Of a DNA stretch of 26,899 bases, positions 3,096 through 26,769 are shown piece after piece; the first letter of the stretch is position 1; each line of letters starts with the position of its first letter. Source of the stretch: a virus. The translations under genes were made by a program, and so were the position numbers. The stretch covers positions 1 through 26,899 of the IMG/VR virus record IMGVR_UViG_3300045988_046997; one strand, given 5' to 3'. The notes beneath the pieces were generated by a model. The model worked only from the letters and a program-made list of their open reading frames with translations, had not been told where the DNA came from and searched no databases.

Positions 3096-3212
3096 ATGGT
3101 TAAGTTTTGGTTCAAGCGCATCAAGGGCGACATCAAGCGCATTGGCGAAGTACCCGAGCTCTGGCGCGATCAGGTGCGAGAGATGATCGAAGCGGATAAA
3201 TCGTCGAAGTGA
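3096..3212 (+). CDS. XkdX-like small phage protein (38 aa), below the ORF-track threshold
   Basis: AAGGAGAAAGAG RBS followed by ATG at 3096, in frame to TGA at 3210-3212. It encodes MVKFWFKRIKGDIKRIGEVPELWRDQVREMIEADKSSK. The size, the FW-K-R N-terminus and the position between fibre and lysis genes are typical of XkdX-family proteins. Confidence 0.5.
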   Translation: MVKFWFKRIKGDIKRIGEVPELWRDQVREMIEADKSSK

Positions 3213-3232
3213 CGGCGTTCATGTGCTAAGAT
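3204..3232 (+). promoter_or_regulatory. Putative promoter for the lysis cassette: extended -10 TGcTAAGAT at 3224-3232 with a weak -35 TCGAAG
   Basis: The same TGCTAAGAT -10 box occurs in early promoters P1 and P3. The -35 match is poor, so the promoter may depend on an activator. Confidence 0.35.
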
Positions 3233-3324
3233 CGTTTTGCTGCGGTTCCTGCCTTCCGCAGCGGTGTATGAGGTCGAGAGTTCTCTCGGCCTCTGTTGCC
3301 GTTTAGGCATTGAACGGAGACAGC

Positions 3325-3630
3325 GTGGACGACATCGAAGAGCGCGTTTGCAAGCTTGAAGCCGAAAACCAGCAGGTAATCGCCGACGTTAGGACGCTCG
3401 GGGAGCGAGTCGGCAGGCACGGATCAGAGCTTGACGAGCTGAAGATCAAGAGCGCGACGATGAACACGGTTTTAACTAGGATCGACGCGACCGTGGCGAA
3501 GATCGACGGTCGGTTGGACGCTCAGCAGATGAAGCCTGCGCAGCGATGGGACGACATCGTGAAGCAGGTTATTACTCTGGTCATAGCAGCCGCCTTCGGC
3601 GCTGTGATGGTTAATCTCGGTTTTCAGTAA
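3325..3630 (+). CDS. XhlA-like protein (N-terminal coiled coil, C-terminal transmembrane helix); lysis-associated
   Basis: ORF 3310-3630 with a TTG at 3310. GTG at 3325 has a GGAGA RBS 4 nt upstream. The coiled coil IEERVCKLEAENQQV... is followed by the hydrophobic C-terminus VITLVIAAAFGAVMVNLGF. It sits directly before the holin, as xhlA does in PBSX. Confidence 0.55.
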   Translation: MDDIEERVCKLEAENQQVIADVRTLGERVGRHGSELDELKIKSATMNTVLTRIDATVAKIDGRLDAQQMKPAQRWDDIVKQVITLVIAAAFGAVMVNLGFQ

Positions 3631-4962: not shown

Positions 4963-4971
4963 TTTATTAAC

Positions 4972-4990
4972 GCAAACGGAAAGGGTTTGC
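4972..4990. promoter_or_regulatory. Inverted repeat GCAAAC-N7-GTTTGC just downstream of the P1 start site: putative operator or leader hairpin
   Basis: Perfect 6-bp arms. The same arrangement, GCAAAC-N6-GTTTGC, occurs downstream of P2. Confidence 0.5.
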
Positions 4991-5025
4991 GAAGAGCGCC
5001 CGTCATGGGCGGAAAGGCAGGGGAA

Positions 5026-5703
5026 ATGGAACCAACGAAGGAGGCTGAGCCCAGAAGCGTTTACGCGGTTCTCGCTGAGGTTCAGCATCGCGTGACGTGC
5101 AAGAAGGGTCGCGTGAACAAGTTCGGCGGCTACTCGTACCGATCGCTGGAGGACATCAACGCGGCGTTGAAGCCGCTGTGCCAAGAGCTGAGGTGCGGGT
5201 ACTTCTTCACCGACGAGATCGTGCCTATGAGCGTGGAGGGCGAGAGCAGATGGTACTTGAAAGCCACCGCGACGTTCTGGGCGGAAGACGCTTCCCAGAC
5301 CGTGAGCACGTCTGCGTTCGCGCGAGAGCAGGACTCGAAGAAGGGCATGGACGACGCTCAGGTGACCGGTCTTGCGTCGAGCTACGCGCGGAAGTACGCC
5401 TCTTGCGCCCTGTTCGCGATCGACTCAGGCGAAGAGGTGGACGCGATGGACAACGGGCAGAAACAGCGCGCTCGCAAGCAGGTAACGGCTGAGGCAAAGC
5501 AGGATCAGTCGGAAGAGCTTCTTACTCTGGTCGGTCAGTTCGCCGACATGAAAGGCAAGACTGCTGACGAGGTCATGCGAGCGTTGAACAAGAGCAACAC
5601 CATGAAGGGTCTGGGAGTTGCGGCCGATGCCGTCGAGTACGACGTGGAGCAGACTGCTGCTGCGATCGAACTGCTTAAATCATGGATCGCTAAATCGAAA
5701 TAA
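5026..5703 (+). CDS. erf: ERF-family single-strand annealing protein (recombinase)
   Basis: The ORF begins at 4987 with TTG. ATG 5026 is preferred because the conserved GAAAGGCAGG leader/RBS precedes it; ATG 5005 is an alternative. Motifs: VLAEVQ...KKG..N.FGGYSYRSLEDINAALKPL and ...GLASSYARKYASCALFAID. Confidence 0.8.
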   Translation: MEPTKEAEPRSVYAVLAEVQHRVTCKKGRVNKFGGYSYRSLEDINAALKPLCQELRCGYFFTDEIVPMSVEGESRWYLKATATFWAEDASQTVSTSAFAREQDSKKGMDDAQVTGLASSYARKYASCALFAIDSGEEVDAMDNGQKQRARKQVTAEAKQDQSEELLTLVGQFADMKGKTADEVMRALNKSNTMKGLGVAADAVEYDVEQTAAAIELLKSWIAKSK

Positions 5704-5714
5704 GGAGATAGAAC

Positions 5715-6107
5715 ATGCAAGGATTGAACACGGTGACTTTGGGCGGCAACCTGTGCAGGGACGCGGAACTCAGGATGGCGGCGAGCGGAACAGCCGTACT
5801 GTCGTTCAGCGTTGCGGTGAACGAGAGCGTGAAGGATCGTAACGGAGAGTGGAGCGATTACCCGAACTACATCGACTGCACGATGTTCGGTCGCCGCGCG
5901 GAGAGCGTCGCTCCGTACCTGACTAAGGGAGCGTACGTCGCGGTGGTCGGACGCTTGCATCAGAACCGCTGGAAGGCGCAGGACGGGCAGAACCGCTCGA
6001 AGGTCGAGGTATTAGTTGACAACGTGCACTTCGAGAGCAGGGCTGATCGCGCAGAGGCGGCGCATCAGCAGGGCGGCGCTCTGTACGACGAGGACATCCC
6101 GTTTTAA
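5715..6107 (+). CDS. ssb: Single-stranded DNA-binding protein
   Basis: 130 aa with an AAGGAGA RBS. OB-fold-like N-terminus followed by a Gln/Gly-rich linker and an acidic C-terminal tail YDEDIPF. Confidence 0.85.
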   Translation: MQGLNTVTLGGNLCRDAELRMAASGTAVLSFSVAVNESVKDRNGEWSDYPNYIDCTMFGRRAESVAPYLTKGAYVAVVGRLHQNRWKAQDGQNRSKVEVLVDNVHFESRADRAEAAHQQGGALYDEDIPF

Positions 6108-6193: not shown

Positions 6194-6211
6194 GCAAACG
6201 AAATGGTTTGC
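6194..6211. promoter_or_regulatory. Inverted repeat GCAAAC-N6-GTTTGC downstream of P2: putative operator or leader hairpin
   Basis: Perfect 6-bp arms at 6194-6199 and 6206-6211. Confidence 0.5.
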
Positions 6212-6234
6212 AAGGACAATGAAAGGCAGGAAAC

Positions 6235-7597: not shown

Positions 7598-8287
7598 TTG
7601 GCGGGAAAGCGGATGTTCTCGCGGGACGTCGTCGGCTCCGACGGCTTCGCGGATATGGGCTTCGAGGCTCAGGCGCTATACGTCCACCTGTCGATGGACG
7701 CTGACGACTGGGGTTTCGTAGGAGCTCCGAAGAGGGTTCAGCGCTCCATTGGATCTCGACAAGAGGCTCTGAGAGAGCTTGAGAAGTCGGGTTTCGTTCA
7801 TGTGTTCGAGAGCGGCGTTCTGGCTATCATGGACTGGTGGCAGAACAACACGATCACGGAGAGCAGGCGGAAGGCGACGCAATACGAGGCGGAGCTGGCG
7901 CAGCTGACGGTCACGGATTGCGGTTCCTACCAGCTCGTTTGCGAACCGCAAGCAAACTGCATGCAAAGTGCATGCGAAACGCCTGCTAGTTTAGATGAGG
8001 TTAGTTCAGTTAAATCTAGTTCAGATAAGAAGAAGCCCGCGCGTCATGCCTACGGCACGTACAAGAACGTCCTGTTATCCGATGAAGAGCTGGAGAAGCT
8101 GAAGACGGAGTTTCCGAGCGATTGGCAGGAGCGCATAGAGTCGATATCCACTTATTGCGCATCGAAGGGCAAGGCTTACCGAAACTATCTGGCGACGATC
8201 CGTGCATGGGCGAAACGCGACGGCAAGAAGGGAGGATCGAGAGATGCGGCTGTCTTCGATGCAATCGGCTTTTCAAACGGTGCTTGA
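7598..8287 (+). CDS. Replisome organiser / replication initiator with a DnaD-like C-terminal domain
   Basis: TTG start with a GGAAGGAGG RBS. The C-terminal ...AYRNYLATIRAWAKRDG... is DnaD/DnaB_2-like. An internal iteron + AT-rich element at 7935-8035 encodes the inter-domain linker. Confidence 0.6.
   Translation: MAGKRMFSRDVVGSDGFADMGFEAQALYVHLSMDADDWGFVGAPKRVQRSIGSRQEALRELEKSGFVHVFESGVLAIMDWWQNNTITESRRKATQYEAELAQLTVTDCGSYQLVCEPQANCMQSACETPASLDEVSSVKSSSDKKKPARHAYGTYKNVLLSDEELEKLKTEFPSDWQERIESISTYCASKGKAYRNYLATIRAWAKRDGKKGGSRDAAVFDAIGFSNGA
7935..8035. repeat. Putative origin element oriA inside the replisome-organiser gene
   Basis: Five 11-bp-spaced iterons (GTTTGCgaac, gCAAGCAAA, CTGCATGCAAA, GTGCATGCGAAA, GCCTGCtag) are followed by the AT-rich tagtttagatgaggttagttcagttaaatctagttcagataag. 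About 85 bp of this aligns with 21410-21492. Confidence 0.6.
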
Positions 8288-9077
8288 CGCGCACGAGTCT
8301 GATCCAGTCGGCGACGGGGTCTTCATCGCCGAGGACGGTCTCGCTCATTGCGAGAAGTGCGGCACTCCGATGCAGGTCATCATAACCGACCCGATGGGGA
8401 GGAAACGCACGATGCCGTGCGCCTGCAAATGCATGATCGAGGCTGAGGAACAGCGGAAGCTGGAGGATCAGCGCAGGCGATCCGAGGCGGCTAAGAGGTC
8501 GCGGGTCAGGGCGGCGTTCCCGTTCGAGTCGATGCGCGGGAAGACCTTCTCAGCCGATGACGGGAAGTTCGGCGCAGACCAGATGCGGAAGGCGAGGGCT
8601 TACGCCAAGCGGTTCGTGGAGACTGACGGGAAGATCGACTACGGTTTGCTTTTCTTCGGGAAGCCGGACAGCGGGAAGACGTTCTTGAGCTGCTGCATCG
8701 CAAACGAGGCTCTGGACGCTGGGAAGTCCGTCATCATGCGATCGATGCCGCAGTTGCTCGTCCAGCGCGACGACTCGATGCTCGGCAGGCTGCTCAGGTG
8801 CGACCTGCTCGTCATAGACGATCTGGGAGCCGAGCGCAGCACGTCGTACGGTCAAGAGTACGTCTACGCGGTCGTTGACGGAAGGTACAGCGCGAAGAAG
8901 CCGATGATCGTGTCAACGAACCTGACGCGCGAGGAGCTGGCGGCTCCAGCTGACATCATGTCGGCGAGGATCTACGGGAGAGTGCTGGAGGCTTGCCTGC
9001 CGATCGAGGTGGAGACGGGAAGGCGCAGGGCTACCCGAGACCGATACCGCGAAATAATGGACGACATGGGCGTGTAA
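8244..9077 (+). CDS. DnaC/IstB-like AAA+ helicase loader
   Basis: The ORF extends from 8202. The start is at ATG 8244, which has a GGGAGGA RBS. Walker A FFGKPDSGKTFL; Walker B LLVIDDLGAE. Confidence 0.8.
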   Translation: MRLSSMQSAFQTVLDAHESDPVGDGVFIAEDGLAHCEKCGTPMQVIITDPMGRKRTMPCACKCMIEAEEQRKLEDQRRRSEAAKRSRVRAAFPFESMRGKTFSADDGKFGADQMRKARAYAKRFVETDGKIDYGLLFFGKPDSGKTFLSCCIANEALDAGKSVIMRSMPQLLVQRDDSMLGRLLRCDLLVIDDLGAERSTSYGQEYVYAVVDGRYSAKKPMIVSTNLTREELAAPADIMSARIYGRVLEACLPIEVETGRRRATRDRYREIMDDMGV

Positions 9078-9078
9078 C

Positions 9079-9091
9079 GTGATATAATCAC
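9079..9091 (+). promoter_or_regulatory. Promoter of the XRE regulator: extended -10 TGaTATAAT embedded in the perfect palindrome GTGATATAATCAC
   Basis: TATAAT at 9083-9088 with TG two bp upstream. 13-bp palindrome spans 9079-9091. No good -35 box. Confidence 0.55.
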
Positions 9092-9124
9092 ATATAGAAA
9101 CAGTAACAAACGAGAGGGTAGCAG

Positions 9125-9310
9125 ATGAACGCAGAGGCGATCCGCGAGAAATGCGGGGAGATGGGGATCAGCCAGAACGAGCTGGCGCGACGTACTGGGG
9201 TATCGGTGGCTCACATGTCGAACGTCATGACGGGCAAGCGCGACGCGCGAGTCGGTCTGCTGAAGAAGATGTGCGAGCTGTTCGGAGTGAAGGCAGAGGA
9301 GATCTGGTAA
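9125..9310 (+). CDS. XRE-family helix-turn-helix transcriptional regulator (Cro/CI-like, 61 aa)
   Basis: ...ISQNELARRTGVSVAHMSNVMTGKR... is a canonical HTH_XRE motif. Confidence 0.8.
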   Translation: MNAEAIREKCGEMGISQNELARRTGVSVAHMSNVMTGKRDARVGLLKKMCELFGVKAEEIW

Positions 9311-9510
9311 TGAACGAGGGCAAGCGAGTGAAGATCGCCACGAGGCACGGAGTCCGTTACGGGGTGATCCACTATAGGCGCATCGAGCGCCGATCGTTGA
9401 ACCAGCTAATGGCAGAGCACCAGACGGCGACGGCGGTCGTCGGGATCCTGATCGTGTCGGCGTGCATCCTGCTCGGCGGTCTGGTCGAGGGCGCCAGAAT
9501 GGCTTTTTAA
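9310..9510 (+). CDS. Small membrane-anchored protein (66 aa)
   Basis: ATG overlaps the upstream TAA, with an AGGAGA RBS. Basic N-terminus and hydrophobic C-terminus TATAVVGILIVSACILLGGLV. Confidence 0.45.
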   Translation: MNEGKRVKIATRHGVRYGVIHYRRIERRSLNQLMAEHQTATAVVGILIVSACILLGGLVEGARMAF

Positions 9511-9615
9511 CGGTCTAGGATCGTCTGTGAGCCTCGAAACGCTTCTGAAGGCATGGTTTTACCTTGGAACGCGAAACAAGGCTTGCAAGGCGGCACGGCA
9601 ACGGAAAGGGAAGAC

Positions 9616-9855
9616 ATGGAAGAGTACGGAATGGGGTTCGCGGCGTGCGAGAAACCGCTCGGGACGAACGGTCGATATGAACGCTTGCTCGAGCAGTTCG
9701 AGGAAAGCGGCGACGAGTGCATTTGCTGCGGCTTCGAGGACGTGAAGAAGGCGAAGTCAGCCCAAGCGGCGATCAGCGCCATAGCGCGAAAGAAGCACGA
9801 GGGCATCAGATGCAGCCGCGAATGCTCGACGGTCTACATCTCGAAGGATTTGTAA
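9616..9855 (+). CDS. Small Cys-rich protein (79 aa), possible zinc ribbon
   Basis: Internal ATG preceded by GGAAAGGGAAG. Contains CICCGF...CSRECS. The ORF-track start at 9553 has no RBS. Confidence 0.4.
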   Translation: MEEYGMGFAACEKPLGTNGRYERLLEQFEESGDECICCGFEDVKKAKSAQAAISAIARKKHEGIRCSRECSTVYISKDL

Positions 9856-10274
9856 TGGCTGGAGTGGACACGCTGCCCGAGAACCTGAAGCCGCTCATGG
9901 ACGGAGTTTCCGTGAAGACCCCGTACTGCGCCGTTTGCGGGAGGTCGCGCCCGCTTAACCAGCACCACGTCGTGCGCAGGGGCGCGGGGAAGATTTTCAA
10001 GTTCGGCAAGGAGGTTGAGAAACCGACCGTCACGCTGTGCGGCTTCGGGAACAACCTAGCGGACGCGGACGGCAACGAGTACTGCCACGGGCTGGCGCAT
10101 GCGAACCGGCTCCACTTCCGATGGGTGAAGTCGAAGCAGCCGATCGACGAGTACAGCTGGATCAACGTCAACGGCGGTCATTGGGAGTACTTGAAGACGG
10201 ACGTTCCAACGAAGTACGCCGAGGCTCTGGAGATGGACGGCTGGAAACCGCTGCATCAGCAGTCTGAGTGGTGA
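9855..10274 (+). CDS. HNH endonuclease
   Basis: Start at ATG 9855 overlapping the upstream TAA. Motifs: ...CAVCGRSRPLNQHHVVRR... and ...CHGLAHANRLH.... Confidence 0.7.
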   Translation: MAGVDTLPENLKPLMDGVSVKTPYCAVCGRSRPLNQHHVVRRGAGKIFKFGKEVEKPTVTLCGFGNNLADADGNEYCHGLAHANRLHFRWVKSKQPIDEYSWINVNGGHWEYLKTDVPTKYAEALEMDGWKPLHQQSEW

Positions 10275-10279
10275 AGGGT

Positions 10280-10316
10280 ACCCGCCAGACCAAGAAGGTC
10301 GGCGGGTATTTCTTTC
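10280..10316 (+). terminator. Rho-independent terminator T3 after the HNH gene
   Basis: CCCGCC(a)GAC-caagaag-GTCGGCGGG stem followed by TATTTCTTT. Confidence 0.7.
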
Positions 10317-10334
10317 GGAAAACCTTGAATATTT

Positions 10335-10365
10335 GTTTGCAAACGTGAATGAATCATGCTAAGAT
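10335..10365 (+). promoter_or_regulatory. Middle promoter P3: -35 TTGCAA (10337-10342) inside the perfect palindrome GTTTGCAAAC (10335-10344), 17-bp spacer, extended -10 TGcTAAGAT (10357-10365)
   Basis: Hexamers and 17-bp spacing read directly. The operator-like palindrome overlaps the -35 box. Confidence 0.7.
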
Positions 10366-10366
10366 T

Positions 10367-10405
10367 AGGTCACACCGAAAGGGAAACACCGAACGAAAGG
10401 CAGGA
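10367..10405 (+). promoter_or_regulatory. Conserved 39-nt leader AGGTCACACCGAAAGGGAAACACCGAACGAAAGGCAGGA, identical to 17212-17250
   Basis: Exact identity between the two copies. Contains the tandem ACACCGAA and an AGGA Shine-Dalgarno 4 nt before the ATG. Confidence 0.7.
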
Positions 10406-10409
10406 CACA

Positions 10410-10640
10410 ATGGCAAGCAGGAAACAGACCACCGCAGAGCGTTTCGGCATCGAGAAGCGCGTCTTCGCCGCGAAGATCTGCTACTGCGACATCGAGGACA
10501 ACGGCAAGCAGGCAGGCGCGACGGTCGATTACAAGTCCCTTGCAGCCGCGTACAAGCGTTGCAGCAAGGACATCGCGAACGGCTTGGCGCTGTCTCTTCA
10601 CGCGCTCACAGCCGACGGCTGGGTCGAATGCGGAGCTTGA
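10410..10640 (+). CDS. Hypothetical protein (76 aa)
   Basis: ATG directly after the conserved leader. The ORF-track start at 10356 lies inside the promoter. Confidence 0.45.
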   Translation: MASRKQTTAERFGIEKRVFAAKICYCDIEDNGKQAGATVDYKSLAAAYKRCSKDIANGLALSLHALTADGWVECGA

Positions 10641-10652
10641 TAGAGGGGGCGG

Positions 10653-10898
10653 TTGGAGATGAGGTCTTACAAAGAGCTCGCGGAGATGACGGGAACCACG
10701 GTCGATGAAGTGCGAGCGATGATGCGATCAGCGCGTAAGGTGCACAAGCAGCGCTGCGTCAAACCAGTCGAGTATGAGCTGTACGCGGTTTGGTGCGTTG
10801 GCATCTCGGGAACCGGTTGCATCGGCAGCGGCAGCACCCGAGAAGAGGCGGTTATATACGCGCTCGAGAACAACGTTCAGTTCGCGGCGTTTCTTTAA
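10653..10898 (+). CDS. Hypothetical small protein with an HTH-like N-terminus
   Basis: TTG at 10653 with a GAGGGGG RBS; ATG at 10659 is an alternative. ...SYKELAEMTGTTVDEVRAMMRSARK. Confidence 0.4.
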   Translation: MEMRSYKELAEMTGTTVDEVRAMMRSARKVHKQRCVKPVEYELYAVWCVGISGTGCIGSGSTREEAVIYALENNVQFAAFL

Positions 10899-10910
10899 TG
10901 AGGTTCGGCA

Positions 10911-11147
10911 ATGGCATACCCGATGAACGTTGACGAGTTCAACCTGCGTTTCATAACTGGTAATAACACATGGTTGACCCTTGAGGTCGATGATACGGGT
11001 CACTGCATCGACTACATCGTGACGTACATGGAGGAAGGCTTTCCGCCTGAACGCACGACGTTCCGCGATCAGCCGAACGCGAAGAGGGTGTTCGCATTCA
11101 TGTTGTACAAGCTCTACGAGGTTTTGGCTAAAAAGGAGGAAGAATGA
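10911..11147 (+). CDS. Hypothetical protein (78 aa)
   Basis: ORF ending in an ATGA overlap with the dUTPase start. No family recognised. Confidence 0.4.
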   Translation: MAYPMNVDEFNLRFITGNNTWLTLEVDDTGHCIDYIVTYMEEGFPPERTTFRDQPNAKRVFAFMLYKLYEVLAKKEEE

Positions 11148-11572
11148 TAGGCAGGAAGCTCCACGTCGTACTCGACGGGGAAGTCCCGACGTACGCCCAC
11201 GAGGGAGACGCTGGGTTGGATCTGAGGGCAGCGGAGAGCGTGACGGTGCCAGCCGGTGGATCGGCGCTCGTGCGCACTGGCGTTCGGGTGGAGATCCCGA
11301 GCGGTTGCGTCGGTCTGGTGTTCCCGAGGTCTGGTCTGGGGTCGAAGGGCATCACGTTGCGAAACGCCGTCGGAGTGATCGACTCGGGGTACCGTGGCGA
11401 GGTCATGGCGGCGCTGTGGAACACAACGGGTGACGAGTTCGAGTGCGAGAAGGGCGACCGCATCTGCCAGATGGTCGTCATGCCGTACGTTCCTTGTCAG
11501 GTCGTGATCGTTGAAGAACTGTCGGACACCGAGCGAGGGTCTGACGGTCACGGATCGACGGGGGTCAAGTGA
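11144..11572 (+). CDS. dut: dUTP diphosphatase (dUTPase)
   Basis: AAGGAGGAAGA RBS. Motifs: AGLDLRA, PRSGLG, GVIDSGYRGEV, GDRICQ and C-terminal ...GSDGHGSTG. Confidence 0.85.
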   Translation: MIGRKLHVVLDGEVPTYAHEGDAGLDLRAAESVTVPAGGSALVRTGVRVEIPSGCVGLVFPRSGLGSKGITLRNAVGVIDSGYRGEVMAALWNTTGDEFECEKGDRICQMVVMPYVPCQVVIVEELSDTERGSDGHGSTGVK

Positions 11573-12009
11573 TGAGGAACCCGAGCGTTTACGAGCTGGT
11601 GGAATGGGACACGGGGAGGGTATTGATCCACGGAACGAAAAGCTACATTGCTGATCAGCTCGGGTTGTCGCTTTACTCAGTGGACACGATCATCAGCCAC
11701 GCGAGGAAGGGCATCGGGGCGACGAGGGTCGCGTTCTTCGATCCAGCGATCCACTACCGCGCGTCAAACGGCGATCAGGTCATCGAGGGCACGTGCGACG
11801 AGATAAGCAAGGCGATCGATAGAACACGGTTCTCGGTCATGACGGCGGCGCAGAAAGGGTACGTGACCACGAACGGGTGGAGGATCGAAGAGGTTGAGCC
11901 AGAGTGCTGGTGTGCGTTCGGTGTTCGCAAACGATACAACGACGCTGTGTCGAGGCTGAAAAGCGCGACGCGCCGTGGCAAGGTAAAACGATCTAAGGAG
12001 AGCAGATGA
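11572..12009 (+). CDS. Hypothetical protein, possibly a DNA-binding regulator
   Basis: ATG overlaps the dut TGA. ...SYIADQLGLSLYSVDTIISHARKG... is HTH-like. The C-terminus is basic. Confidence 0.45.
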   Translation: MRNPSVYELVEWDTGRVLIHGTKSYIADQLGLSLYSVDTIISHARKGIGATRVAFFDPAIHYRASNGDQVIEGTCDEISKAIDRTRFSVMTAAQKGYVTTNGWRIEEVEPECWCAFGVRKRYNDAVSRLKSATRRGKVKRSKESR

Positions 12010-12707
12010 AGGTTCGCGTGATTAGAGCAACGACGAGCCCGATGCACGCAATCAGCGAAGAGGCTGGGATATGTTACGGCAAAACTGACTACAACCCGAA
12101 GCGAGTGGAGCGTTGTCTGAGGAACGGTCACACGAGCGTCGCCGAGCACGTTTCCGCGTCGTTCCGCATCGAGGGAATCAGCCGATCCTGTTTGGCGCAG
12201 CGTATGCGGAATGAAATCCACTTCATGCGCCTCAACCGAGAGTGGTATGAATCCGAGGACAGTACGGTCGAGTGTGGCAACCGTGCGTTCAGGGACATAG
12301 CGAACGCCGTAATCCCCTATAGCCATTTTGGCAATAATTACATCGAAATCGTTGAACGCATTGCAGACCTCATCGAGCCGCAATTGATCGACGGCGAGAC
12401 ATCGGACGGCTACCACACGTTTAACGAGCTCTACCATCATCGAGCCGTGCTGTTCTCGGTGATCGTGTCGAGCTTCAGCGATCGAGCTTGGAAGTCTAAG
12501 CTGCACGCTGATGGCACCATGTACGACGGAATGTTCATCGTCGGCATCGAGACTCCAGACGGGCAAGCGACGTACCATTACGACGTAGAGCCTTACTGGG
12601 ATCTGTTCCGATGCAAGGAGGTTGACCGTGCGCCGGAGTGGGACGGGCACACACCCGGCCAAGCCATTGAGCGAATCGGCAAGCTTGCTGAGAATGCAGT
12701 AAAATAA
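12006..12707 (+). CDS. Divergent ThyX-like (flavin-dependent thymidylate synthase fold) protein with an altered signature motif
   Basis: AGGAGAG RBS. The N-terminus ...CLRNGHTSVAEHVSASFRIEGISRSCLAQRMRNEIHFMRLNREWY aligns with the ThyX segment ...[40 protein letters not shown]. The RHR-X7-S motif is replaced by RMR..H.... Confidence 0.45.
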   Translation: MKVRVIRATTSPMHAISEEAGICYGKTDYNPKRVERCLRNGHTSVAEHVSASFRIEGISRSCLAQRMRNEIHFMRLNREWYESEDSTVECGNRAFRDIANAVIPYSHFGNNYIEIVERIADLIEPQLIDGETSDGYHTFNELYHHRAVLFSVIVSSFSDRAWKSKLHADGTMYDGMFIVGIETPDGQATYHYDVEPYWDLFRCKEVDRAPEWDGHTPGQAIERIGKLAENAVK

Positions 12708-12817
12708 TGACGAAGATAAGCAAGATCTGCGAATCAGCAAAGATGGTCGCAGGGTTGATTCTCTTTTTCGTGTTTGCTTTCGCGCTGGCGATTGCGCTTC
12801 AGGCGATGCTCGGTTAG
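12707..12817 (+). CDS. Possible small membrane protein (36 aa), below the ORF-track threshold
   Basis: ATG shares its A with the upstream TAA. It encodes MTKISKICESAKMVAGLILFFVFAFALAIALQAMLG and ends at TAG 12815-12817. The RBS is weak. Confidence 0.3.
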   Translation: MTKISKICESAKMVAGLILFFVFAFALAIALQAMLG

Positions 12818-12844
12818 GTTCGATTCTCTGGGGGTCGAGAAGTT

Positions 12845-13318
12845 TTGGAGAAGGACAAGGAGAAACACGCAGGGGGACAGCCGACGAAGTACGTTGAGAG
12901 CGTCCACGTGCCGTGGGGCGTGTCCCTTGCGCGTCGAGGATGCACTGACGAGGAGATAGCGGAGGCGTTCGGGGTCAGCACCAGAACCGTTTACCGCTGG
13001 AAGAACGCGCATCCCGAGTTCTGTCACGCCATAAGCGAGACGAAGAGCCAAGCCGATGAGAGAGTCGTCGAGGGTCTTTACAAGCGCGCGTGCGGCATGA
13101 TCGTCGTGAACAAGACGGAGAGCGTAACGGAGCGCGACGGCGTGAAGACGAAGAAGACCGAGAAGGTAACGAAGGAGCTTCCGCCAGACTCCGTGGCGGC
13201 TATGTTCTGGCTGAAGAACAGGCAGCCGACGCTTTGGAGCGACAACCCTGCGGAGCAGACGCGAACCGCGTCAGACGAGGCTATCAAGGACGCGATCAGG
13301 AATGCGGGTCTGAGCTGA
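12845..13318 (+). CDS. terS: Terminase small subunit
   Basis: TTG start. HTH ...CTDEEIAEAFGVSTRTVYRWKNAHPEF... and ...AAMFWLKNRQPTLWSDN..., typical of TerS. Located directly upstream of TerL. Confidence 0.7.
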   Translation: MEKDKEKHAGGQPTKYVESVHVPWGVSLARRGCTDEEIAEAFGVSTRTVYRWKNAHPEFCHAISETKSQADERVVEGLYKRACGMIVVNKTESVTERDGVKTKKTEKVTKELPPDSVAAMFWLKNRQPTLWSDNPAEQTRTASDEAIKDAIRNAGLS

Positions 13319-14538
13319 TGCTGAGCGAGAAGCAGCGCCTTCTCGCGACGTGGTGGAGCGAAGGCGGGGAGTTTGCAGACAAAGACGGGGTCATAGCAGA
13401 TGGAGCAGTGCGCAGCGGCAAGACGTACGCGCTGGTCATTGGGTTCCTGCTTTGGTCGCAGCTCAGGTTTTCTGGTGAGTCGTTCATAATCGCAGGCCGC
13501 ACGATGGGAGCGTTGAAGCGAAACGTGGTGGCTCCGATGCTACAGGTCATACGCGATTTCGGTTGGCCTTGCCACTACAACCGCAACGAGGGCGTTATAA
13601 CGATCGCGAGCAACATGTACCACCTGTTCGGCGCAAACAACGAACAGAGTCAGGACAAGATCCAAGGCATGACGGCGGCGGGTTGCCTTCTAAACGAGGT
13701 GGCGCTCATGCCGCGCTCGTTCGTGGATCAGGCACTCGCCCGCTGCTCCGTGTCCGGTGCGAAGTTCTGGTGGGACTGCAACCCGAGTTACCCAGCGCAC
13801 TTCGTTAAAGCTGACTTCATCGACAAGGCTCAGGAACGCAACCTGTTCAGATTGAAGTTCACGATGGACGACAACCCGACTTTGGCTCCCGATGCTCGGG
13901 CAAGGTACGAGCGGCTTTACTCCGGCGTGTTCTACGACCGTTACGTTAGAGGCTTGTGGGTAGTCGCGGAGGGTCTGGTCTATCAGGACTTCAAGGAGTC
14001 GGAGATGTGTGCGGAGCTGTCGGATGAAGACATCAAGAAGGCGGCGCACGTGGTGTCCATCGACTACGGCATCACGAACCCGTTCGCGGCTATAGATTGG
14101 GTCGTCAAAGACGGCGTGGCGTACGCGGTGGACGAGTATTACTTCGATTCTAAAGACGAAGAGTTCCGCCGAACCGACGAGGAGCATTACGAGGCGCTGA
14201 AGAAGTGGATCGGCAAGAGATACGTCGAGCTGGTGGTCATCGACCCGTCCGCCTCTTCGTTCATCGAGTGCATGGCGCGCCACGGCGAGTGGGAGTTCAG
14301 AGGCGCGGACAACTCGGTCATAGACGGCATCAGCAACACCATGACGGCCATGAAGCAGCAAGGTCTTCTCATAGGAAAGAAGTGCAAGCACCTGCTTCAA
14401 GAACTCGGTCTGTATAGATGGGACGAGAAGAAGAAGCACGAGGCCGTGGTAAAGGAGAACGACCACGCTTGCGACGCCATGAGGTACTTCGTTCAAACGG
14501 TCGGCGTGAACGAGCTTTCATGTTTTGACTGGGAGTGA
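13318..14538 (+). CDS. terL: Terminase large subunit
   Basis: The ORF track extends to 13090. The start is at ATG 13318 overlapping the terS TGA. Walker A DGAVRSGKTYAL; the nuclease-half acidic motifs follow. Confidence 0.85.
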   Translation: MLSEKQRLLATWWSEGGEFADKDGVIADGAVRSGKTYALVIGFLLWSQLRFSGESFIIAGRTMGALKRNVVAPMLQVIRDFGWPCHYNRNEGVITIASNMYHLFGANNEQSQDKIQGMTAAGCLLNEVALMPRSFVDQALARCSVSGAKFWWDCNPSYPAHFVKADFIDKAQERNLFRLKFTMDDNPTLAPDARARYERLYSGVFYDRYVRGLWVVAEGLVYQDFKESEMCAELSDEDIKKAAHVVSIDYGITNPFAAIDWVVKDGVAYAVDEYYFDSKDEEFRRTDEEHYEALKKWIGKRYVELVVIDPSASSFIECMARHGEWEFRGADNSVIDGISNTMTAMKQQGLLIGKKCKHLLQELGLYRWDEKKKHEAVVKENDHACDAMRYFVQTVGVNELSCFDWE

Positions 14539-14574
14539 CGTATAATCTTCGAAGCGAAGAGATTGGAGAACCGA

Positions 14575-15978
14575 ATGGGATTGTTCGACGCGATGCTCGA
14601 CATGCTGGCAGCCGTTCTGGGCAAGAGGATCCAAGGGCACGACCAGCTGGCGGCGTACCGAGACAGCGGCAAGAAGGGAACAGAATACTCCGTGGAGAGC
14701 ATGGTCAGCGAGTCGCTCGCGAACCTGATGATGCTCGACTTCACGATGCCGATCGAGGGCGAGTCCGCAAGGGCGAGGATGCTCGACGGAACGTCGGACT
14801 CGTTCGTGCGAGACACGCTGTGCAACGCGGTGTCTATGGGCTTCCTCACCGGAGACAGCGTCACGGTGCCGAGTTGGAACGGTCGCACGATGGACAACGT
14901 GCTGGTTGACGCCGGAAGCTTCGCGATCCTAGGCGCGAACGGTCACGAGATAACGTCGATGATCTACGTCGTGGACGAGAAGCGGTTCAATCACGGCTCG
15001 ACTTACACGCTTCTAAGGCTCATCGAGCTTGTGCCGTACACCGCTCAGGACGGCACGCAGACGCACGCGAACCGGTATAAAACCTTCATCGCGAAGGACG
15101 GCACCATCACGGACATCCCGCTGAGCGAGTTCCCCGACTGGGCGGCGACCAATGAGGATGAGTGGGTCATCCCGAACGTCGATCGCCTGCTTATCGGTCG
15201 TTACCGCAGCTTCACGCTGAACCCGCTGAACCCGAACGCGCAGAAGGGAACGCCGATCTGCTTCGGAGCGTCCGCGCCGATCAGGGAGATACACTATTTG
15301 ACGGCGCAGATGCACGAGGAGTTCGGTCTGAGCGAGAAGGCGATCATCGCCGACAAGACGCTCTTTAAGAAGGAGCTGCTGCGAGACGGCGAGGGAAACG
15401 TTGTCAGCCAGAAGCTCGTCCTGCCAAAGGGTCGCGAACGGCTCTTCATGAACGTCGGCAACCGAGGGACTTCCGGAGCTCCGCTCATCCAAGAGTGGGC
15501 TCCGACGATCCAGCTGCAACCGTACGTGGACGCTCTGGAGAAGCAGTATCAAGAGGTCGAGAAGTGCGTCGGCGTGTCCTCGGGCATCCTGAGCAACCTG
15601 AACGACCAGAGCTATCAGAACGTGGACAACGTCCGCAAGAGCACGATCAAGACGCAGAGCTTCGTCAACACCGCCCGCAAAGTGTGCGAGAGCTACCTCG
15701 AGGACATGGTCTACGCTTGGAACGCCATAGCTAATTTCTATGGCTTGACCCCCGTCGGCGACTTCCACGTCGAGTACAAGTGGTCGGACGACTACATCAA
15801 CACGTTTAGCGACCAGCAGAACGCGATCCTCGCTGGCGATGCTATCGGGGCGACGGATGCCGTGGACTACCGCATGTTCGTCATGGGCGAGAGCCCCGAG
15901 GTTGCAAGGGAGCGAGTTGCGGCGATCAAGGCTGAGAAGGGCGACGAACTCGCGGCGTTCGAGGAGATCAGGGTCTAA
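14575..15978 (+). CDS. Portal protein
   Basis: 467 aa with a GGAGAA RBS. Position directly after TerL and size are typical. No motif-level check was possible. Confidence 0.6.
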   Translation: MGLFDAMLDMLAAVLGKRIQGHDQLAAYRDSGKKGTEYSVESMVSESLANLMMLDFTMPIEGESARARMLDGTSDSFVRDTLCNAVSMGFLTGDSVTVPSWNGRTMDNVLVDAGSFAILGANGHEITSMIYVVDEKRFNHGSTYTLLRLIELVPYTAQDGTQTHANRYKTFIAKDGTITDIPLSEFPDWAATNEDEWVIPNVDRLLIGRYRSFTLNPLNPNAQKGTPICFGASAPIREIHYLTAQMHEEFGLSEKAIIADKTLFKKELLRDGEGNVVSQKLVLPKGRERLFMNVGNRGTSGAPLIQEWAPTIQLQPYVDALEKQYQEVEKCVGVSSGILSNLNDQSYQNVDNVRKSTIKTQSFVNTARKVCESYLEDMVYAWNAIANFYGLTPVGDFHVEYKWSDDYINTFSDQQNAILAGDAIGATDAVDYRMFVMGESPEVARERVAAIKAEKGDELAAFEEIRV

Positions 15979-17120
15979 TGGACGCGGCGGACATCGAGTA
16001 CCAAGAGAAGGAACAGAACATCGTGGAGGAGGACGGCATGGCTGTTGAGCTTGCCGTCCTCTCCGTCATTGCGGCTAGGCTCGCGATGATCGACGATAAG
16101 ACCACTTACGCGACGGTCAGGGCGTGGCAGGTCGAGGACATGGCGACCATCTCGCGGCTGCTGTCCGCTGGCGCGAAGATGATCAGCGGCAGGTCTGACA
16201 GGATCATAGACAAGATGGGCGAGTCCTCAGACGAGTGGGCTAAGCCGTTCTTCGAGGCTCGCGGCATCGAGCAGAGGTCGGTGTTTGACGACGAGTTCGC
16301 GGCTGCGGCGATGGACGCTGGGAAGGCGAAGAACGCGAAGAACGTCGCTTCGATGTGCAGGACTTCAGTTATAGGCCTTGTGGCTCCAGACGGATCGGTG
16401 AACCGGATAAGCGAGACGTACCGGAAGCTCATGGACTCCGCGATCAGGGCGATCATGCGGAGCGAGGAGGACTACAACAGCGCGATCGAACGTGCGGTGC
16501 GCAAGCTCTCCAAGGGCGGTCTGAGGGTGAAGTACCCGAGCGGGGCGACCCGCGAGATGTACGCAGCCGTCTCCATGAACGTGATGGACGGTTTCAGGCT
16601 CACGATGCAGGACGTGCGCGACCAGCAGGCGCAGAGGTTCGGGGCGGACGGCGTGGAGGTCTCGGCTCATGGCATGTGCGCAGAAGATCATCTTCCGTAT
16701 CAAGGCAGGCAGTACACGAAGGCGGAGTTCGAGCGCATCCAGAAGAAGCTAGAGAGACCGATAGGCGAGGGCATGAACTGCCGCCACATGGTCTCTGGCG
16801 TGGTTCTGGGCGTTTCGAGCAACGCGTACGGCGAGAAGCAGCGCAGGCAGATGGCGAGGGAGTCCCGCAGGAAGACGGGGGTCGAGAATGCAGACGGGCA
16901 CGACATGACGGCGTACGAGTTCACGCAGTGGCAGAGGCGGCAGGAGACCGATATACGCAAGCTGAAGGCGCAGGCGAGGGTTCACGAGAAGGCTGGGCTC
17001 GATCCGAAGGAGTTCGAGGCGGAGGCCGCGCGGAAGAGAAAGCAATACGTCGAGCTGTCGAAGAAGGCGGGAGTTGAGACGCGGCTGGAGAGAACGAAAG
17101 TCTACGAGTGGAAGCTCTAG
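15978..17120 (+). CDS. Head morphogenesis protein (SPP1 gp7 / Mu F-like minor capsid protein)
   Basis: ATG overlaps the portal TAA. ...HGMCAEDHLPYQGRQYTKAEFERIQKK...GEGMNCRHM... resembles the Mu-F/gp7 C-terminal signature. Position after the portal fits. Confidence 0.55.
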   Translation: MDAADIEYQEKEQNIVEEDGMAVELAVLSVIAARLAMIDDKTTYATVRAWQVEDMATISRLLSAGAKMISGRSDRIIDKMGESSDEWAKPFFEARGIEQRSVFDDEFAAAAMDAGKAKNAKNVASMCRTSVIGLVAPDGSVNRISETYRKLMDSAIRAIMRSEEDYNSAIERAVRKLSKGGLRVKYPSGATREMYAAVSMNVMDGFRLTMQDVRDQQAQRFGADGVEVSAHGMCAEDHLPYQGRQYTKAEFERIQKKLERPIGEGMNCRHMVSGVVLGVSSNAYGEKQRRQMARESRRKTGVENADGHDMTAYEFTQWQRRQETDIRKLKAQARVHEKAGLDPKEFEAEAARKRKQYVELSKKAGVETRLERTKVYEWKL

Positions 17121-17122
17121 GG

Positions 17123-17149
17123 AAAACCCGCAGGTCAGCGGGTTTTTTC
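17123..17149 (+). terminator. Rho-independent terminator T4 after the packaging/morphogenesis operon
   Basis: AACCCGC-aggtca-GCGGGTT stem followed by TTTTTCATTC. Confidence 0.75.
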
Positions 17150-17181
17150 ATTCATGTATGAAATAATATAAGCATTACCGT

Positions 17182-17210
17182 TTACAAACAGAAACAAGCA
17201 ATACTATAAT
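17182..17210 (+). promoter_or_regulatory. Promoter P4: -35 TTACAA (17182-17187), 17-bp spacer, -10 TATAAT (17205-17210)
   Basis: Consensus-like hexamers. The upstream GTTTACAAAC is a near-palindrome related to the P3 operator. The 39-nt leader at 17212-17250, identical to the P3 leader, follows. Confidence 0.7.
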
Positions 17211-17211
17211 G

Positions 17212-17250
17212 AGGTCACACCGAAAGGGAAACACCGAACGAAAGGCAGGA
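17212..17250 (+). promoter_or_regulatory. Second copy of the conserved 39-nt leader, identical to 10367-10405
   Basis: Exact sequence identity. Confidence 0.7.
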
Positions 17251-17254
17251 TGAA

Positions 17255-17440
17255 ATGAACGAGAAGAAGCAGGAACTCTTCAACGAGATGATCGAAGCAG
17301 CCACAGCCTACATGAACACCAACACGTTCGAGAACGCAAAATACTGCTCAGTCCGCAAGGCGACCGAGGCTTACGCGGAGTTCAGCGGCATCAGCTACGA
17401 GCAAGCCGCGAATATCGCGCTCGAGACGATCAAGCGCTAG
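17255..17440 (+). CDS. Hypothetical small helical protein (61 aa), moron gene 1
   Basis: ATG 4 nt after the AGGA of the conserved leader. Confidence 0.45.
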   Translation: MNEKKQELFNEMIEAATAYMNTNTFENAKYCSVRKATEAYAEFSGISYEQAANIALETIKR

Positions 17441-17466
17441 GAAGGCAGGAGCAAACGAAGGACTTT

Positions 17467-17673
17467 ATGAGCAGCGACCGCTTCATGAAGGCGGTCAACG
17501 GCTACGAGAAGTACGAGTGCATGGGCGAGTTCAAGTGGTTCGACGAGCAGTCAAGGGCGCTCGCTGACGAGGTGTTCGAGGAAACCCGGATCCTCATTGA
17601 AGAGATCGCGAGAGAGAACGGCGTGCTTTACAACGACGTGCTCGATGCGGTTCGCAAGGTTTCGCGCTACTAG
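17467..17673 (+). CDS. Hypothetical small acidic protein (68 aa), moron gene 2
   Basis: Preceded by GAAGGCAGGAGCAAACGAAGG. Confidence 0.45.
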   Translation: MSSDRFMKAVNGYEKYECMGEFKWFDEQSRALADEVFEETRILIEEIARENGVLYNDVLDAVRKVSRY

Positions 17674-17686
17674 GAAGGAGCAAGAA

Positions 17687-18016
17687 ATGGCAAAGGAGCA
17701 TGATGGGCGTTTCGGCAAGTTGTACTCGGCATGGGCGTACGACGAGAACGAGGACGCGATGAGGGACGCGAACGCGAGGGTTTACCACGATCTTAGGGCA
17801 GCGGTAAGTATCAATCCGCGCAACACGGACGATGCGAAGGGGAAGGATGAACTCGTTTACGAGAACAGTGCGACAGGGTACGCGCACAGGAGCTTCATGG
17901 TGAAGGCAAAGCCAGAGTGGATGACGATGGCGGAAGCCGCGCTGGTGATCGACATGGGGAGCCTGTGCTTCGGGTTCCAGACGATGGGCAACGTCGTTAC
18001 CATCTTCACGGACTAG
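17687..18016 (+). CDS. Hypothetical protein (109 aa), moron gene 3
   Basis: Internal ATG with a GGAAGGAG RBS. The ORF-track start at 17597 overlaps the previous gene without an RBS. Confidence 0.45.
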   Translation: MAKEHDGRFGKLYSAWAYDENEDAMRDANARVYHDLRAAVSINPRNTDDAKGKDELVYENSATGYAHRSFMVKAKPEWMTMAEAALVIDMGSLCFGFQTMGNVVTIFTD

Positions 18017-18123
18017 CGAACAACACACAGACGATAAACGAGCGTCCTGCGCTTCACGAGAGCGCGGGGCGCGTTGTGCTATCATGCGGGAAGCAGCCGC
18101 GTGCTTCAACGCGGCACGTTCCC

Positions 18124-18153
18124 ACCGCCGAAGGGGCGGTTAATAAAATCTTT
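18124..18153 (+). terminator. Weak terminator-like hairpin closing the moron
   Basis: ACCGCC-gaag-GGGCGGT stem followed by TAATAAAATCTTT. It lies within a structured 150-bp non-coding region, 18017-18169. Confidence 0.4.
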
Positions 18154-18169
18154 AGAACGGAGAGTGGGC

Positions 18170-18802
18170 ATGAAGAACATCAAGGAAATCACAGGGGAAC
18201 TCGGCATCGAGCTGGACGAGGCGAAGCTCGGCGAGCTTGAGAAGTCCGTTCTCGAGAACTACCGCACCGTGGCGGAGGTCGAGAACAAGCAGAGCCGCAT
18301 CAGCTGGCTCGAGGGTCAGCTGGCTACCGCCAACGAGGCTCTGGAAGCAGCGAAGAACGCGGACGTGACAAACGCCGACGAGGTTCAGGCCATGCGAGAC
18401 AAGATCGCCGCTTACGAGGCGGCTGACGAGGAGCGCAAGGCTCAGACCGAGGAGGAGAAGGCGCGTCAGGAGTTCGAGGAGAGGTTCCGCAGCGCCGTCG
18501 GCGACAAGAAGTTCGCCAACGACATCGTTCGCAGCGCCGTCTCCGACAAGGCTTACTCCGTTGCGAAGGCGAACCCCGACATGGATCTTTCCGCGATCCT
18601 CGGCGGCATCGTCGGCGACTCCGACGGCGTGTGGCTGAACCCGCAGCAGGATCCAAAGAAGATGCCTGGGGCAAGCGAGAACGGCGGAGCGAAGGCTGGA
18701 ATGCAGTCGATCCAGAACGTCGAAGACCTGAAGTGCATGTCCGTCGATGAGATCCGCGCCCACATGGACGAAGTGAACAAGGTTCTGGCGAATCAAAAGT
18801 AA
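18170..18802 (+). CDS. Scaffolding protein
   Basis: Start at ATG 18170 with a GGAGAG RBS. 210 aa, acidic and coiled-coil (...AEVENKQSRISWLEGQLATANEALEAAKN...). Located immediately upstream of the major capsid gene. Confidence 0.65.
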   Translation: MKNIKEITGELGIELDEAKLGELEKSVLENYRTVAEVENKQSRISWLEGQLATANEALEAAKNADVTNADEVQAMRDKIAAYEAADEERKAQTEEEKARQEFEERFRSAVGDKKFANDIVRSAVSDKAYSVAKANPDMDLSAILGGIVGDSDGVWLNPQQDPKKMPGASENGGAKAGMQSIQNVEDLKCMSVDEIRAHMDEVNKVLANQK

Positions 18803-18817
18803 AAGGAGGCTGCAACA

Positions 18818-22779: not shown

Positions 22780-22802
22780 AGACGTTGGCGTGGTAGAATG
22801 GA

Positions 22803-26760: not shown

Positions 26761-26769
26761 GAGGATCGC

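Follow-up and report, generated by a model that had tools for sequence, protein, structure and literature searches.

Identical 39-nt leaders, a start-associated motif and a complementary hairpin loop in a human-gut siphovirus genome

The window analysed here, the whole stretch of 26,899 nucleotides of the IMG/VR virus record IMGVR_UViG_3300045988_046997, contains the same 39-nt non-coding sequence, AGGTCACACCGAAAGGGAAACACCGAACGAAAGGCAGGA, at 10367–10405 and at 17212–17250, directly behind two promoters (P3 and P4). The sequence is very probably a promoter-proximal translation leader that was homogenised by recent conversion and that carries a constrained start-associated motif. The chances that this motif is also the target of a hairpin loop encoded in the same genome are about even. 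Taken as a whole, the explanation, with its three layers of leader role, conversion, and selected motif plus hairpin, is judged somewhat probable. In its most ambitious form it holds that every operon of these phages has its first cistron labelled by a private ribosome-binding word, GAAAGGCAGGA, and that a dedicated phage hairpin RNA reads this word via its loop UUCCUGCCUU, a tentative proposal that falls a little short of an even chance.

Two identical leaders and their divergence in relatives

As the first-pass annotation had described, the two copies agree at 39/39 positions, each holds ACACCGAA twice, the promoters in front of them differ in sequence, and the transcription units are otherwise unrelated. 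The ACACCGAA occurrences are 14 nt apart (10372/10386 and 17217/17231), the promoters read TTGCAA-N17-TAAGAT and TTTACA-N18-TATAAT, and the proteins encoded downstream of copies 1 and 2 are unrelated. The 39-mer occurs exactly twice, both times on the + strand; no third copy was found in the window even at 3 mismatches, and none arose in 100 dinucleotide-preserving shuffles. The edges of the repeat are sharp: flanks of 39 nt match at 21/39 positions on the upstream side and at 14/39 on the downstream side.

The anatomy of the two copies is that of a leader. The 39-mer begins 1 nt past the -10 hexamer, so that its first ~5–7 nt (AGGTCA) are probably untranscribed discriminator DNA, and both copies stop 4 nt short of the first ATG of the operon (10410, a start backed by 77-aa homologues, and 17255, backed by P0019). 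As RNA, the sequence has the composition A17 G12 C9 U1, here called U-free, and structure prediction leaves both leaders unstructured (centroid wholly unpaired, -3.3 kcal/mol, z = -0.7). A scan of the entire window with Rfam returned no family at the gathering threshold. On this anatomy, the 39-mer would comprise the discriminator and a short 5' untranslated leader at two of six promoter cassettes, and the leader would act as a U-free, unstructured ribosome landing pad at the first cistron of the operon. It would end in GAAAGGCAGGA, 4–5 nt before the AUG, where GAAAGG would pair with a Firmicute-type 16S tail; GAAAGG does fit the canonical Firmicute anti-Shine–Dalgarno sequence. The last base of copy 2 also opens a two-codon mini open reading frame, AUG AAA UGA (17250–17258), whose stop overlaps the real start (AUGAAAUGAAC). 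The same place reads AUG GAA UGA in the relative L050, holds no such frame in L045, and in L026 is represented by AUGAUGUAA after the motif; the mini-frame may be a case of start–stop coupling or an accident.

Exact conservation between the two units had been taken to imply selection on the whole 39-mer, with the ACACCGAA tandem as a possible operator. Relatives, collected via the capsid, minor-head, 76-aa and 61-aa proteins and labelled L0xx by locus, do not bear this out. Orthologous P4 leaders match that of the window at 35/40 (L045), 34/39 (L050) and 38/39 (L020) positions, behind P4 promoters that keep 29–33 of ~35 positions, and the adjoining minor-head gene has a third-codon identity of 0.83–0.84; given the similarity of these values, the whole leader drifts at about the synonymous rate, with orthologous leaders of close relatives differing at 4–6 of ~39 positions. 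The minor-head and downstream-coding-sequence identities of L020 were excluded from this comparison of leader and codons, those values being frame-shifted. Within a genome, the P3 and P4 leaders share 34/39 positions in L050 and 33/40 in L049/L045, and the pair in L057 also differs, so that orthologues diverge and the paralogues are not identical in the three other genomes in which both cassettes were recovered. Further, the second ACACCGAA is replaced in relatives by ACACCCAA, AACAAAAA, CACCAAAC or CCACATCC, not being kept in L020, L044, L045, L049 and L057. The first-pass annotation had proposed that free divergence of the leader in related genomes would count against a selected function. 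The middle of the leader does diverge in this way, whereas its 3' block, CGAAAGGCAGGA, stays constrained. Selection would thus act not on all 39 bases, the ACACCGAA repeat would not be the functional unit, and CGAAAGGCAGGA would be the constrained part.

The perfect identity is best accounted for by recent copying, as had been suggested among other possibilities, though not as a new segmental duplication. A recent segmental duplication was rejected on the poor match of the flanks and on the presence in relatives of both cassettes with diverged leaders, which fit conversion of a pre-existing paralogue. The P4 leader of the window is nearer to P3-type leaders (37/39 with that of L050, 36/40 with that of the phi29-like L044) than to orthologous P4 leaders. 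We infer from these comparisons that, in this lineage, a P3-type sequence recently replaced at least ~18 nt of it, by gene conversion or short-homology recombination; the two leaders would then be old paralogues of one leader family. L020 has the same P3-like P4 leader with another gene behind it, and the P4 leader of L057 is followed by that alternative gene too, which would make the leader a recombination joint whose conserved ends serve swaps of the downstream gene. The ERF recombinase and SSB system of the phage is probably the agent of the homogenisation. Erf, Red-beta and RecT recombinases are efficient on short, diverged homologies (De Paepe et al. 2014, PMC3945230).

The gene behind copy 1 is itself a highly mobile, strongly conserved small gene. 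Its 76-aa product (MASRKQTTAERFGIEKRV...) is 84–96% identical in the retrieved relatives and 79–96% identical over full-length database matches, and the loci compared (L038, L040, L044, L052, L055 and L058) place it in backbones of the same siphovirus family, of temperate siphoviruses with serine recombinases, of an HK97-like phage and of phi29-like podoviruses. It always stands first behind a promoter; the promoters are unrelated, but the leaders between promoter and gene are related and have GAAAGGCAGG (or GAAAGGGAGG) at their ends. At these loci, leader identity is 60–91%, usually below the third-position identity of the coding sequence (78–87%). Neither the 76-aa nor the 61-aa leader-proximal protein matched a family in Pfam or PHROGs, and the AlphaFold model of the 76-aa protein is poor (pLDDT 50). 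The idea that this protein autoregulates via its own leader was set aside, as adjacency explains the linkage and the leader also serves other genes.

The start-associated motif and the complementary hairpin

In an alignment of 12 leaders, the sole fully invariant block is CGAAAGGC.GG, and the 3' block around it is strongly constrained in distant relatives and in unrelated phage backbones. The window holds GAAAGGCAGG in four exact copies, each of them 4–5 nt before the ATG of an operon-first gene. Among the loci fetched up to the time of counting, which include phi29-like and temperate phages with the 76-aa gene, 34 of 38 distinct occurrences lie 4–5 nt (rarely 6–8 nt) before the start of an open reading frame, nearly always ATG. 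They are almost always found just downstream of a -10 box, with one non-start copy on the opposite strand, and internal genes use GGAGG-type sites instead. The core AAGGCAGG is observed nine times in the window against 0.72 expected. The distance of the motif from the promoter (-10) varies between 19 and 49 nt while that from the ATG is fixed at 4–5 nt, which points to a role in RNA or translation. These features make CGAAAGGCAGGA a family-wide start-associated sequence limited to promoter-proximal genes.

The constraint may extend beyond what ribosome binding asks for. In relatives whose minor-head protein is only 46–48% identical, GAAAGGCAGGA is kept and the remaining leader is replaced by A/C-rich sequence, and conservation also covers the invariant C and the GG(A) after it, which are not needed to pair with the canonical Firmicute anti-Shine–Dalgarno sequence. 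Leaders of one subfamily (B) have a canonical GAAAGGAG site, yet retain AAGGCAG a few bases upstream, which fits a recognition element distinct from Shine–Dalgarno function. The conservation of the non-Shine–Dalgarno positions would be explained if the block were also targeted by a phage RNA. Two further candidates for parts of the leader were considered and rejected: the upstream GAAAGGG as a STAB-SD-like 5' stabiliser, which fits the window while the AUGGA and ACGGA variants of relatives pair poorly with 16S, and pairing of GCAGG with 16S helix 45, a segment that is base-paired in the ribosome. In two relatives, the operon-first ATG is replaced by CTG (L050:6362, also L051; a 76-aa homologue) or ACG (L002:4713) with motif, spacing and reading frame intact; non-canonical initiation, gene decay or faulty assembly could each account for this.

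A candidate partner for the motif is found upstream of the lysis cassette. The single minus-strand AAGGCAGG of the window (3248–3255), when read on the + strand, is the loop of a hairpin at 3239–3262 that sits 6 nt after the extended -10 box TGTGCTAAGAT. Each family genome covering the region has one such hairpin just 3' of a -10 box, with the loop UUCCUGCCUU or UCCCUGCCUU; the P0-type box precedes it in L021, L023, L049, L057 and L060, and GTGTATAAT or GTGTACAAT substitutes in other subfamilies. The loop, YUCCUGCCUU, is constant in all of these genomes though the stems take three or four different forms (GCUGCGG/CCGCAGC, ACCCCCAGUCGC/GCGACUGGGGGU, ACCCCCUGCCGC/GCGGUGGGGGGU, and a CCGCCGC variant); L186 has a further stem variant. 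In the 7-bp core stem, 100% of the cells of the alignment are paired and both sides have changed at 5 of 7 pairs; the covariation score was reached by 0 of 500 shuffles and collapses in slid controls, and the G-U pairs of the stem are valid solely in + strand RNA. The loop is unpaired in the minimum-free-energy and centroid folds of five genomes. A search that specified the stem and was blind to the loop retrieved 1 unrelated hairpin and 6 family matches, each of which has this loop. A loop-blind search with the 7-bp A/B stem alone was too unspecific to serve as more than a crude negative control; it found 120 unrelated hairpins with 107 different loops, none of them this one. A promoter-anchored hairpin search found no genomes beyond those already collected, and Rfam matches around the hairpin (3150–3400) are at chance level only (E at least 1.9).

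With a promoter of its own, the hairpin would be made either at the start of the lysis-operon leader or, in one subfamily, as a free RNA of ~60 nt. In subfamily B (L021, L023 and L060), a TG-extended -10 box, the hairpin, and a strong terminator with a 13-bp GC-rich stem precede another promoter; as read from sequence, this arrangement is that of an independent small RNA of ~60 nt. In the window, the second hairpin, ahead of the lysis cassette (GTG 3325, holin 3641, amidase 3852), might act as an attenuator; given its weak U tail, the element may serve in two forms, as a short attenuated RNA and as the beginning of the lysis mRNA.

The loop UUCCUGCCUU is the exact complement of AAGGCAGGAA, and pairing is possible at 10/10 positions with the P2 site (6223–6232), at 9/10 with the P3 and P4 sites, and with 8 pairs plus two G-U wobbles at the P1 site. 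The T of the variant motif at P5, GAAAGGTAGG, should still form a G-U wobble with the G of the loop, and the P3 target GGCGGG of L050 retains a G-U pair with the loop. The duplexes of loop and targets have predicted energies between -15.2 and -16.5 kcal/mol, whereas the mean over the genome is -6.4 +/- 2.7. The chance that an invariant 10-nt loop exactly complements the one invariant 10-mer of the leaders is, by a rough estimate, of the order of 1e-4 to 1e-5. An earlier suggestion that the leader is a small-RNA target thus gains support from the conserved loop at 3246–3255 and is plausibly right, with the 3' motif as the target instead of the 39-mer. We infer antisense control of operon-first translation by the hairpin RNA, in which the loop would pair with AAGGCAGGAA over the ribosome-binding site and co-ordinately modulate, most likely repress, translation of every operon-first gene. 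As a separate observation, the dUTPase gene opens with ATG ATA GGC AGG AAG (11144–11158), which contains AGGCAGGAA, a 9-nt loop match just inside the coding start that ranks among the best predicted loop targets.

Weighing the explanations

Several points count against the proposed pairing and conversion. The family genomes show no compensatory change between loop and target, only co-conservation: C-type loops (UCCCUGCCUU; U/C at loop position 2) face unchanged targets, and the P4 target GGCCGG of L057 (A-to-C) breaks one pair that is left uncompensated. Nor is the pairing unique, as coding sites (e.g. near 790, 1890 and 22128) score like the leaders. A protein-binding hairpin (boxB-like) would also have a covarying stem and a conserved loop, and one lysis-linked RNA would hit the recombination, replication, packaging and capsid operons alike. 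Finally, transcription starts were assigned from -10 boxes only, and the direction and mechanism of the conversion were read from four genomes.

Much of this would suit a neutral recent copy combined with an ordinary, horizontally spreading Shine–Dalgarno cassette carried along by promoter modules, with the complementarity being coincidental and the hairpin serving as a 5' mRNA stabiliser, an antitermination site or a protein-binding site, an account that we consider rather unlikely while taking it seriously. Leaders drift at about the synonymous rate, loop–target covariation is missing, other genomic sites pair equally well in silico, and 5'-terminal hairpins are known stabilisers in Firmicutes. 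Moreover, the leader, the motif and the 76-aa gene move together between unrelated phages, and as the third positions of the coding sequence are still 78–87% identical, conservation of the motif could partly reflect recent spread. Such a cassette is nevertheless hard to reconcile with a motif kept at 46–48% minor-head identity while the remaining leader is entirely replaced, or with a conserved C and trailing AGGA that are unneeded for pairing with a Firmicute-type 16S tail in a genome whose internal genes use GGAGG. It would also leave to chance, at the odds roughly estimated above (about 1e-4 to 1e-5), the match between the motif and a loop that stayed fixed through three stem replacements. 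It is improbable that purifying selection maintains the entire 39-mer, ACACCGAA tandem included, as a sequence-specific RNA operator (for a translational repressor, an RNase or the loading of an antiterminator). The perfect identity and sharp edges would fit, as would the 5' 20 nt (AGGTCACACCGAAAGGGAAA) that are identical also in the phi29-like phage L044. However, the lack of conservation of the second ACACCGAA and the differences between P3 and P4 leaders in three other genomes largely refute it, and the leader, which has neither structure nor an Rfam family, is less conserved than coding third positions in most pairs.

Binding by a protein at the motif itself fares no better. A CsrA-type host protein dimer could bridge the upstream A-N-GGA and the GGA of GGCAGGA, ~21 nt apart, and thereby cover the ribosome-binding site; this spacing falls in the range of CsrA dimers. 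By inspection, the upstream A-N-GGA-AA is kept with N being any of the four bases (AGGGA here; AAGGA, AUGGA and ACGGA in relatives). Yet the distant relatives L026–L028 and L036 are without an upstream GGA, the downstream CAGGA misfits A-N-GGA, the sites lie in unstructured RNA and not in hairpin loops, and the complementary hairpin is left unexplained, which together make a CsrA bridge very improbable. Even harder to credit is a DNA operator, in which AAGGCAGG would be bound in either orientation by a phage DNA-binding protein and 3248–3255 would be its inverted copy. The motif is indeed downstream of all six promoters and the phage has small helix-turn-helix (HTH) proteins, but the variable promoter distance (15–49 nt) beside a fixed ATG distance (4–5 nt) argues against such an operator, and the inverted copy coincides in every case with the loop, neither more nor less, of a covarying hairpin with G-U pairs valid on the + strand only.

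Genome context, comparable systems and implications

The ends of the window, 1–141 and 26759–26899, are identical at 141/141 positions, so that the window represents an entire phage genome of about 26,758 bp that is closed into a circle or else terminally redundant; it is a complete human-gut siphovirus of ~26.8 kb, and its relatives come from human-gut metagenomes. Every gene is on the + strand. The order runs from tail genes through the lysis cassette (holin, amidase) to the ERF recombinase and SSB, then RusA, Gp157, a DnaC-like protein and HTH genes, followed by a block that opens with the 76-aa gene and continues with dUTPase, small and large terminase, portal and minor head protein, and ends with small genes, scaffold and major capsid protein and then the head–tail and tail genes. 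Relatives carry HTH_3 genes, and the window itself encodes small HTH proteins. The closest isolates by capsid protein are Firmicute phages, at 42–46% identity. Among INPHARED phages, neither megablast of 9000–19000 nor tblastn of the 76-aa protein gave a match, no prophage relative turned up in species-representative genomes when their contigs were scanned with the minor-head protein and with an alignment of the 76-aa protein, and exact searches for the leader in IMG/VR were without a match.

The window holds four terminator–promoter–leader cassettes (promoters at 4934, 6155, 10337 and 17181) and two with a TG-extended -10 box (3222 and 22792), and the features are collected in Table 1. The P3 orthologue in L050 is 33/35 identical, and the terminator at 17123–17148 is kept in L020, L045 and L050.

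Table 1. Coordinates of the leaders, motifs, hairpins, promoters, terminators and recombination genes in the window.
Feature	Position	Strand	Remarks
Promoter P0, TG-extended -10 TGTGCTAAGAT	3222–3232	+	6 nt ahead of hairpin 3239–3262
Hairpin GCUGCGG-UUCCUGCCUU-CCGCAGC	3239–3262	+	10-nt loop 3246–3255
Second hairpin (GAGGUCGAG-AGUUCU-CUCGGCCUC)	3270–3304	+	Stem-loop 3270–3293, weak U-rich tail
Promoter P1	4934–4962	+	Upstream of ERF recombinase gene
Motif GAAAGGCAGG at P1	5012–5021	+	4 nt before ATG 5026, ERF gene; leader hairpin GCAAAC..GTTTGC
ERF-family single-strand-annealing recombinase	5026–5703	+	Pfam ERF, E = 4e-32
SSB gene	5715–6107	+	SSB homologues in relatives
Promoter P2	6155–6183	+	Upstream of replication-module operon
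Motif GAAAGGCAGG at P2	6221–6230	+	4 nt before ATG 6235, replication-module operon
Intrinsic terminator before P3	10280–10316	+	ACCCGCC...GGCGGGT then T tract; ends preceding operon
Promoter P3, TTGCAA-N17-TAAGAT, TG-extended -10	10337–10365	+	-35 within perfect palindrome GTTTGCAAAC
Copy 1, discriminator and 5' leader of P3	10367–10405	+	Upstream of 76-aa gene 10410–10640
Motif GAAAGGCAGG at P3	10395–10404	+	5 nt before ATG 10410
Intrinsic terminator before P4	17123–17148	+	After minor-head gene; CCCGC-AGGTCA-GCGGG then TTTTTT
Promoter P4, TTTACA-N18-TATAAT	17181–17210	+	11/12 consensus match; kept in L045, L050, L020
Copy 2, discriminator and 5' leader of P4	17212–17250	+	Upstream of 61-aa gene 17255–17440
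Motif GAAAGGCAGG at P4	17240–17249	+	5 nt before ATG 17255
GGAAGGCAGG	17440–17449	+	17 nt upstream of second gene of P4 operon (ATG 17467); also L020, L045
P5 cassette (sixth), TG-extended -10 TGGTAGAAT	22792–22800	+	Then hairpin with T tract, ATG 22858
Variant motif GAAAGGTAGG at P5	22843–22852	+	5 nt before ATG 22858

Other cassettes have leader structures of their own. The P1 and P2 leaders open with a hairpin, GCAAAC-loop-GUUUGC (4970–4991 and 6194–6211), whose arms co-vary in relatives (ACAAAC/GUUUGU, CACAAAC/GUUUGUG) and whose arm sequence matches the -35 region TGTTTGCAA common to P1–P3; this element could stabilise the 5' end of the RNA, act as an operator on the DNA, or do both. The P5 leader contains the hairpin GCCGUGGCGC..GCGUCGCGGC with a U tract and then GAAAGGTAGGGAAAC-ATG at 22858, an arrangement kept in L045; a terminator-like hairpin within this leader suggests attenuation control of the tail-gene operon. 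Outside the cassettes, the non-coding stretch 21260–21480 between head–tail genes holds 11-nt repeat arrays (CTGCATGCAAA-like) followed by four TTAGGTTAGT repeats, and a 101-nt copy of it, 81% identical, lies at 7929–8029 inside the replication-module reading frame 7598–8287. The two arrays look like iterons of a replication origin or a packaging site that is present twice.

Among known systems, the start-associated sequences (SAS) of Cluster K mycobacteriophages resemble the motif in form; their function is unknown, and an RNA or protein partner from host or phage has been proposed (Pope et al. 2011, PMC3203893). SAS are short, asymmetric motifs in one orientation, with several copies per genome 3–7 nt before mostly ATG starts of unrelated genes; they have a Shine–Dalgarno core with conserved positions beyond 16S pairing, and they are conserved across the SAS subclusters. 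Their placement is shared by all four window copies and by 34/38 occurrences in the fetched loci, and the motif is like them in its single orientation, its preference for ATG and the unrelated genes behind it. In contrast, the 13-bp SAS consensus GGGATAGGAGCCC had no match in the window at up to 2 mismatches, the sequence here being GAAAGGCAGGA and the host phylum another. Further, the present motif is limited to promoter-proximal cistrons with 4–6 copies per genome, against 11–19 for SAS, and it has no 17-bp inverted-repeat ESAS; instead, a candidate partner, the complementary loop, is encoded in the same genome.

The proposed mode of action has its nearest likeness in the c4 system of phages P1 and P7. 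The c4 RNA derives from the 5' part of an operon, and its exposed sequence pairs with a distant phage ribosome-binding site and blocks translation. This antisense RNA is the subject of Citron & Schuster 1990, which PMC2864571 cites. Here, too, a predicted structured phage RNA from the 5' part of an operon has an exposed segment complementary to a ribosome-binding site of the same genome. However, no match to the c4 family (RF01695) was found in the window at the Rfam gathering threshold, a single 10-nt loop takes the place of two complementary regions, and the targets stand at every operon start instead of one, in Gram-positive-type gut siphoviruses with no link to immunity. Similarly, the C-rich hairpin loops of Firmicute and actinobacterial small RNAs, S. 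aureus RNAIII (PMC2837412) and the 6C small RNA (PMC6486639), pair with Shine–Dalgarno regions, as an open C-rich loop on a stable stem set against a G-rich, unstructured ribosome-binding site common to several mRNAs, and repress co-ordinately without Hfq. Those RNAs are host-encoded and use a short UCCC seed against a generic Shine–Dalgarno sequence with specificity from extra contacts, whereas the present loop has a G matching the sole non-Shine–Dalgarno C of a private motif. Lastly, the mosaicism linked to Rad52-like recombinases (PMC3945230) uses conserved intergenic stretches as module joints, which fits a homogenised leader with alternative genes behind it, but there the exchange is between phage and prophage over hundreds of bp, as against the within-genome conversion of ~20–40 nt proposed here.

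Regardless of whether the pairing is real, perfect identity of short non-coding repeats in a phage that encodes a recombinase is weak evidence of selection, and conserved leaders serve as joints for gene swapping between phages. Phage start-associated sequences have been without a mechanism since 2011, and the genome that carries the comparable motif described here also encodes a concrete candidate partner for it. Should the pairing be real, the phage co-ordinates all its operons post-transcriptionally through one small RNA, the conserved non-Shine–Dalgarno positions have a reason, and the motif and loop offer a compact, orthogonal pair of ribosome-binding site and anti-ribosome-binding site for Firmicute synthetic biology. 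The hairpin RNA would then switch translation globally by means of one RNA, or time lysis relative to the other operons, and would provide a mechanistic precedent for the mycobacteriophage sequences. Since mobile gene cassettes bring the motif into phi29-like and temperate phages, co-infecting phages could also influence one another through it.

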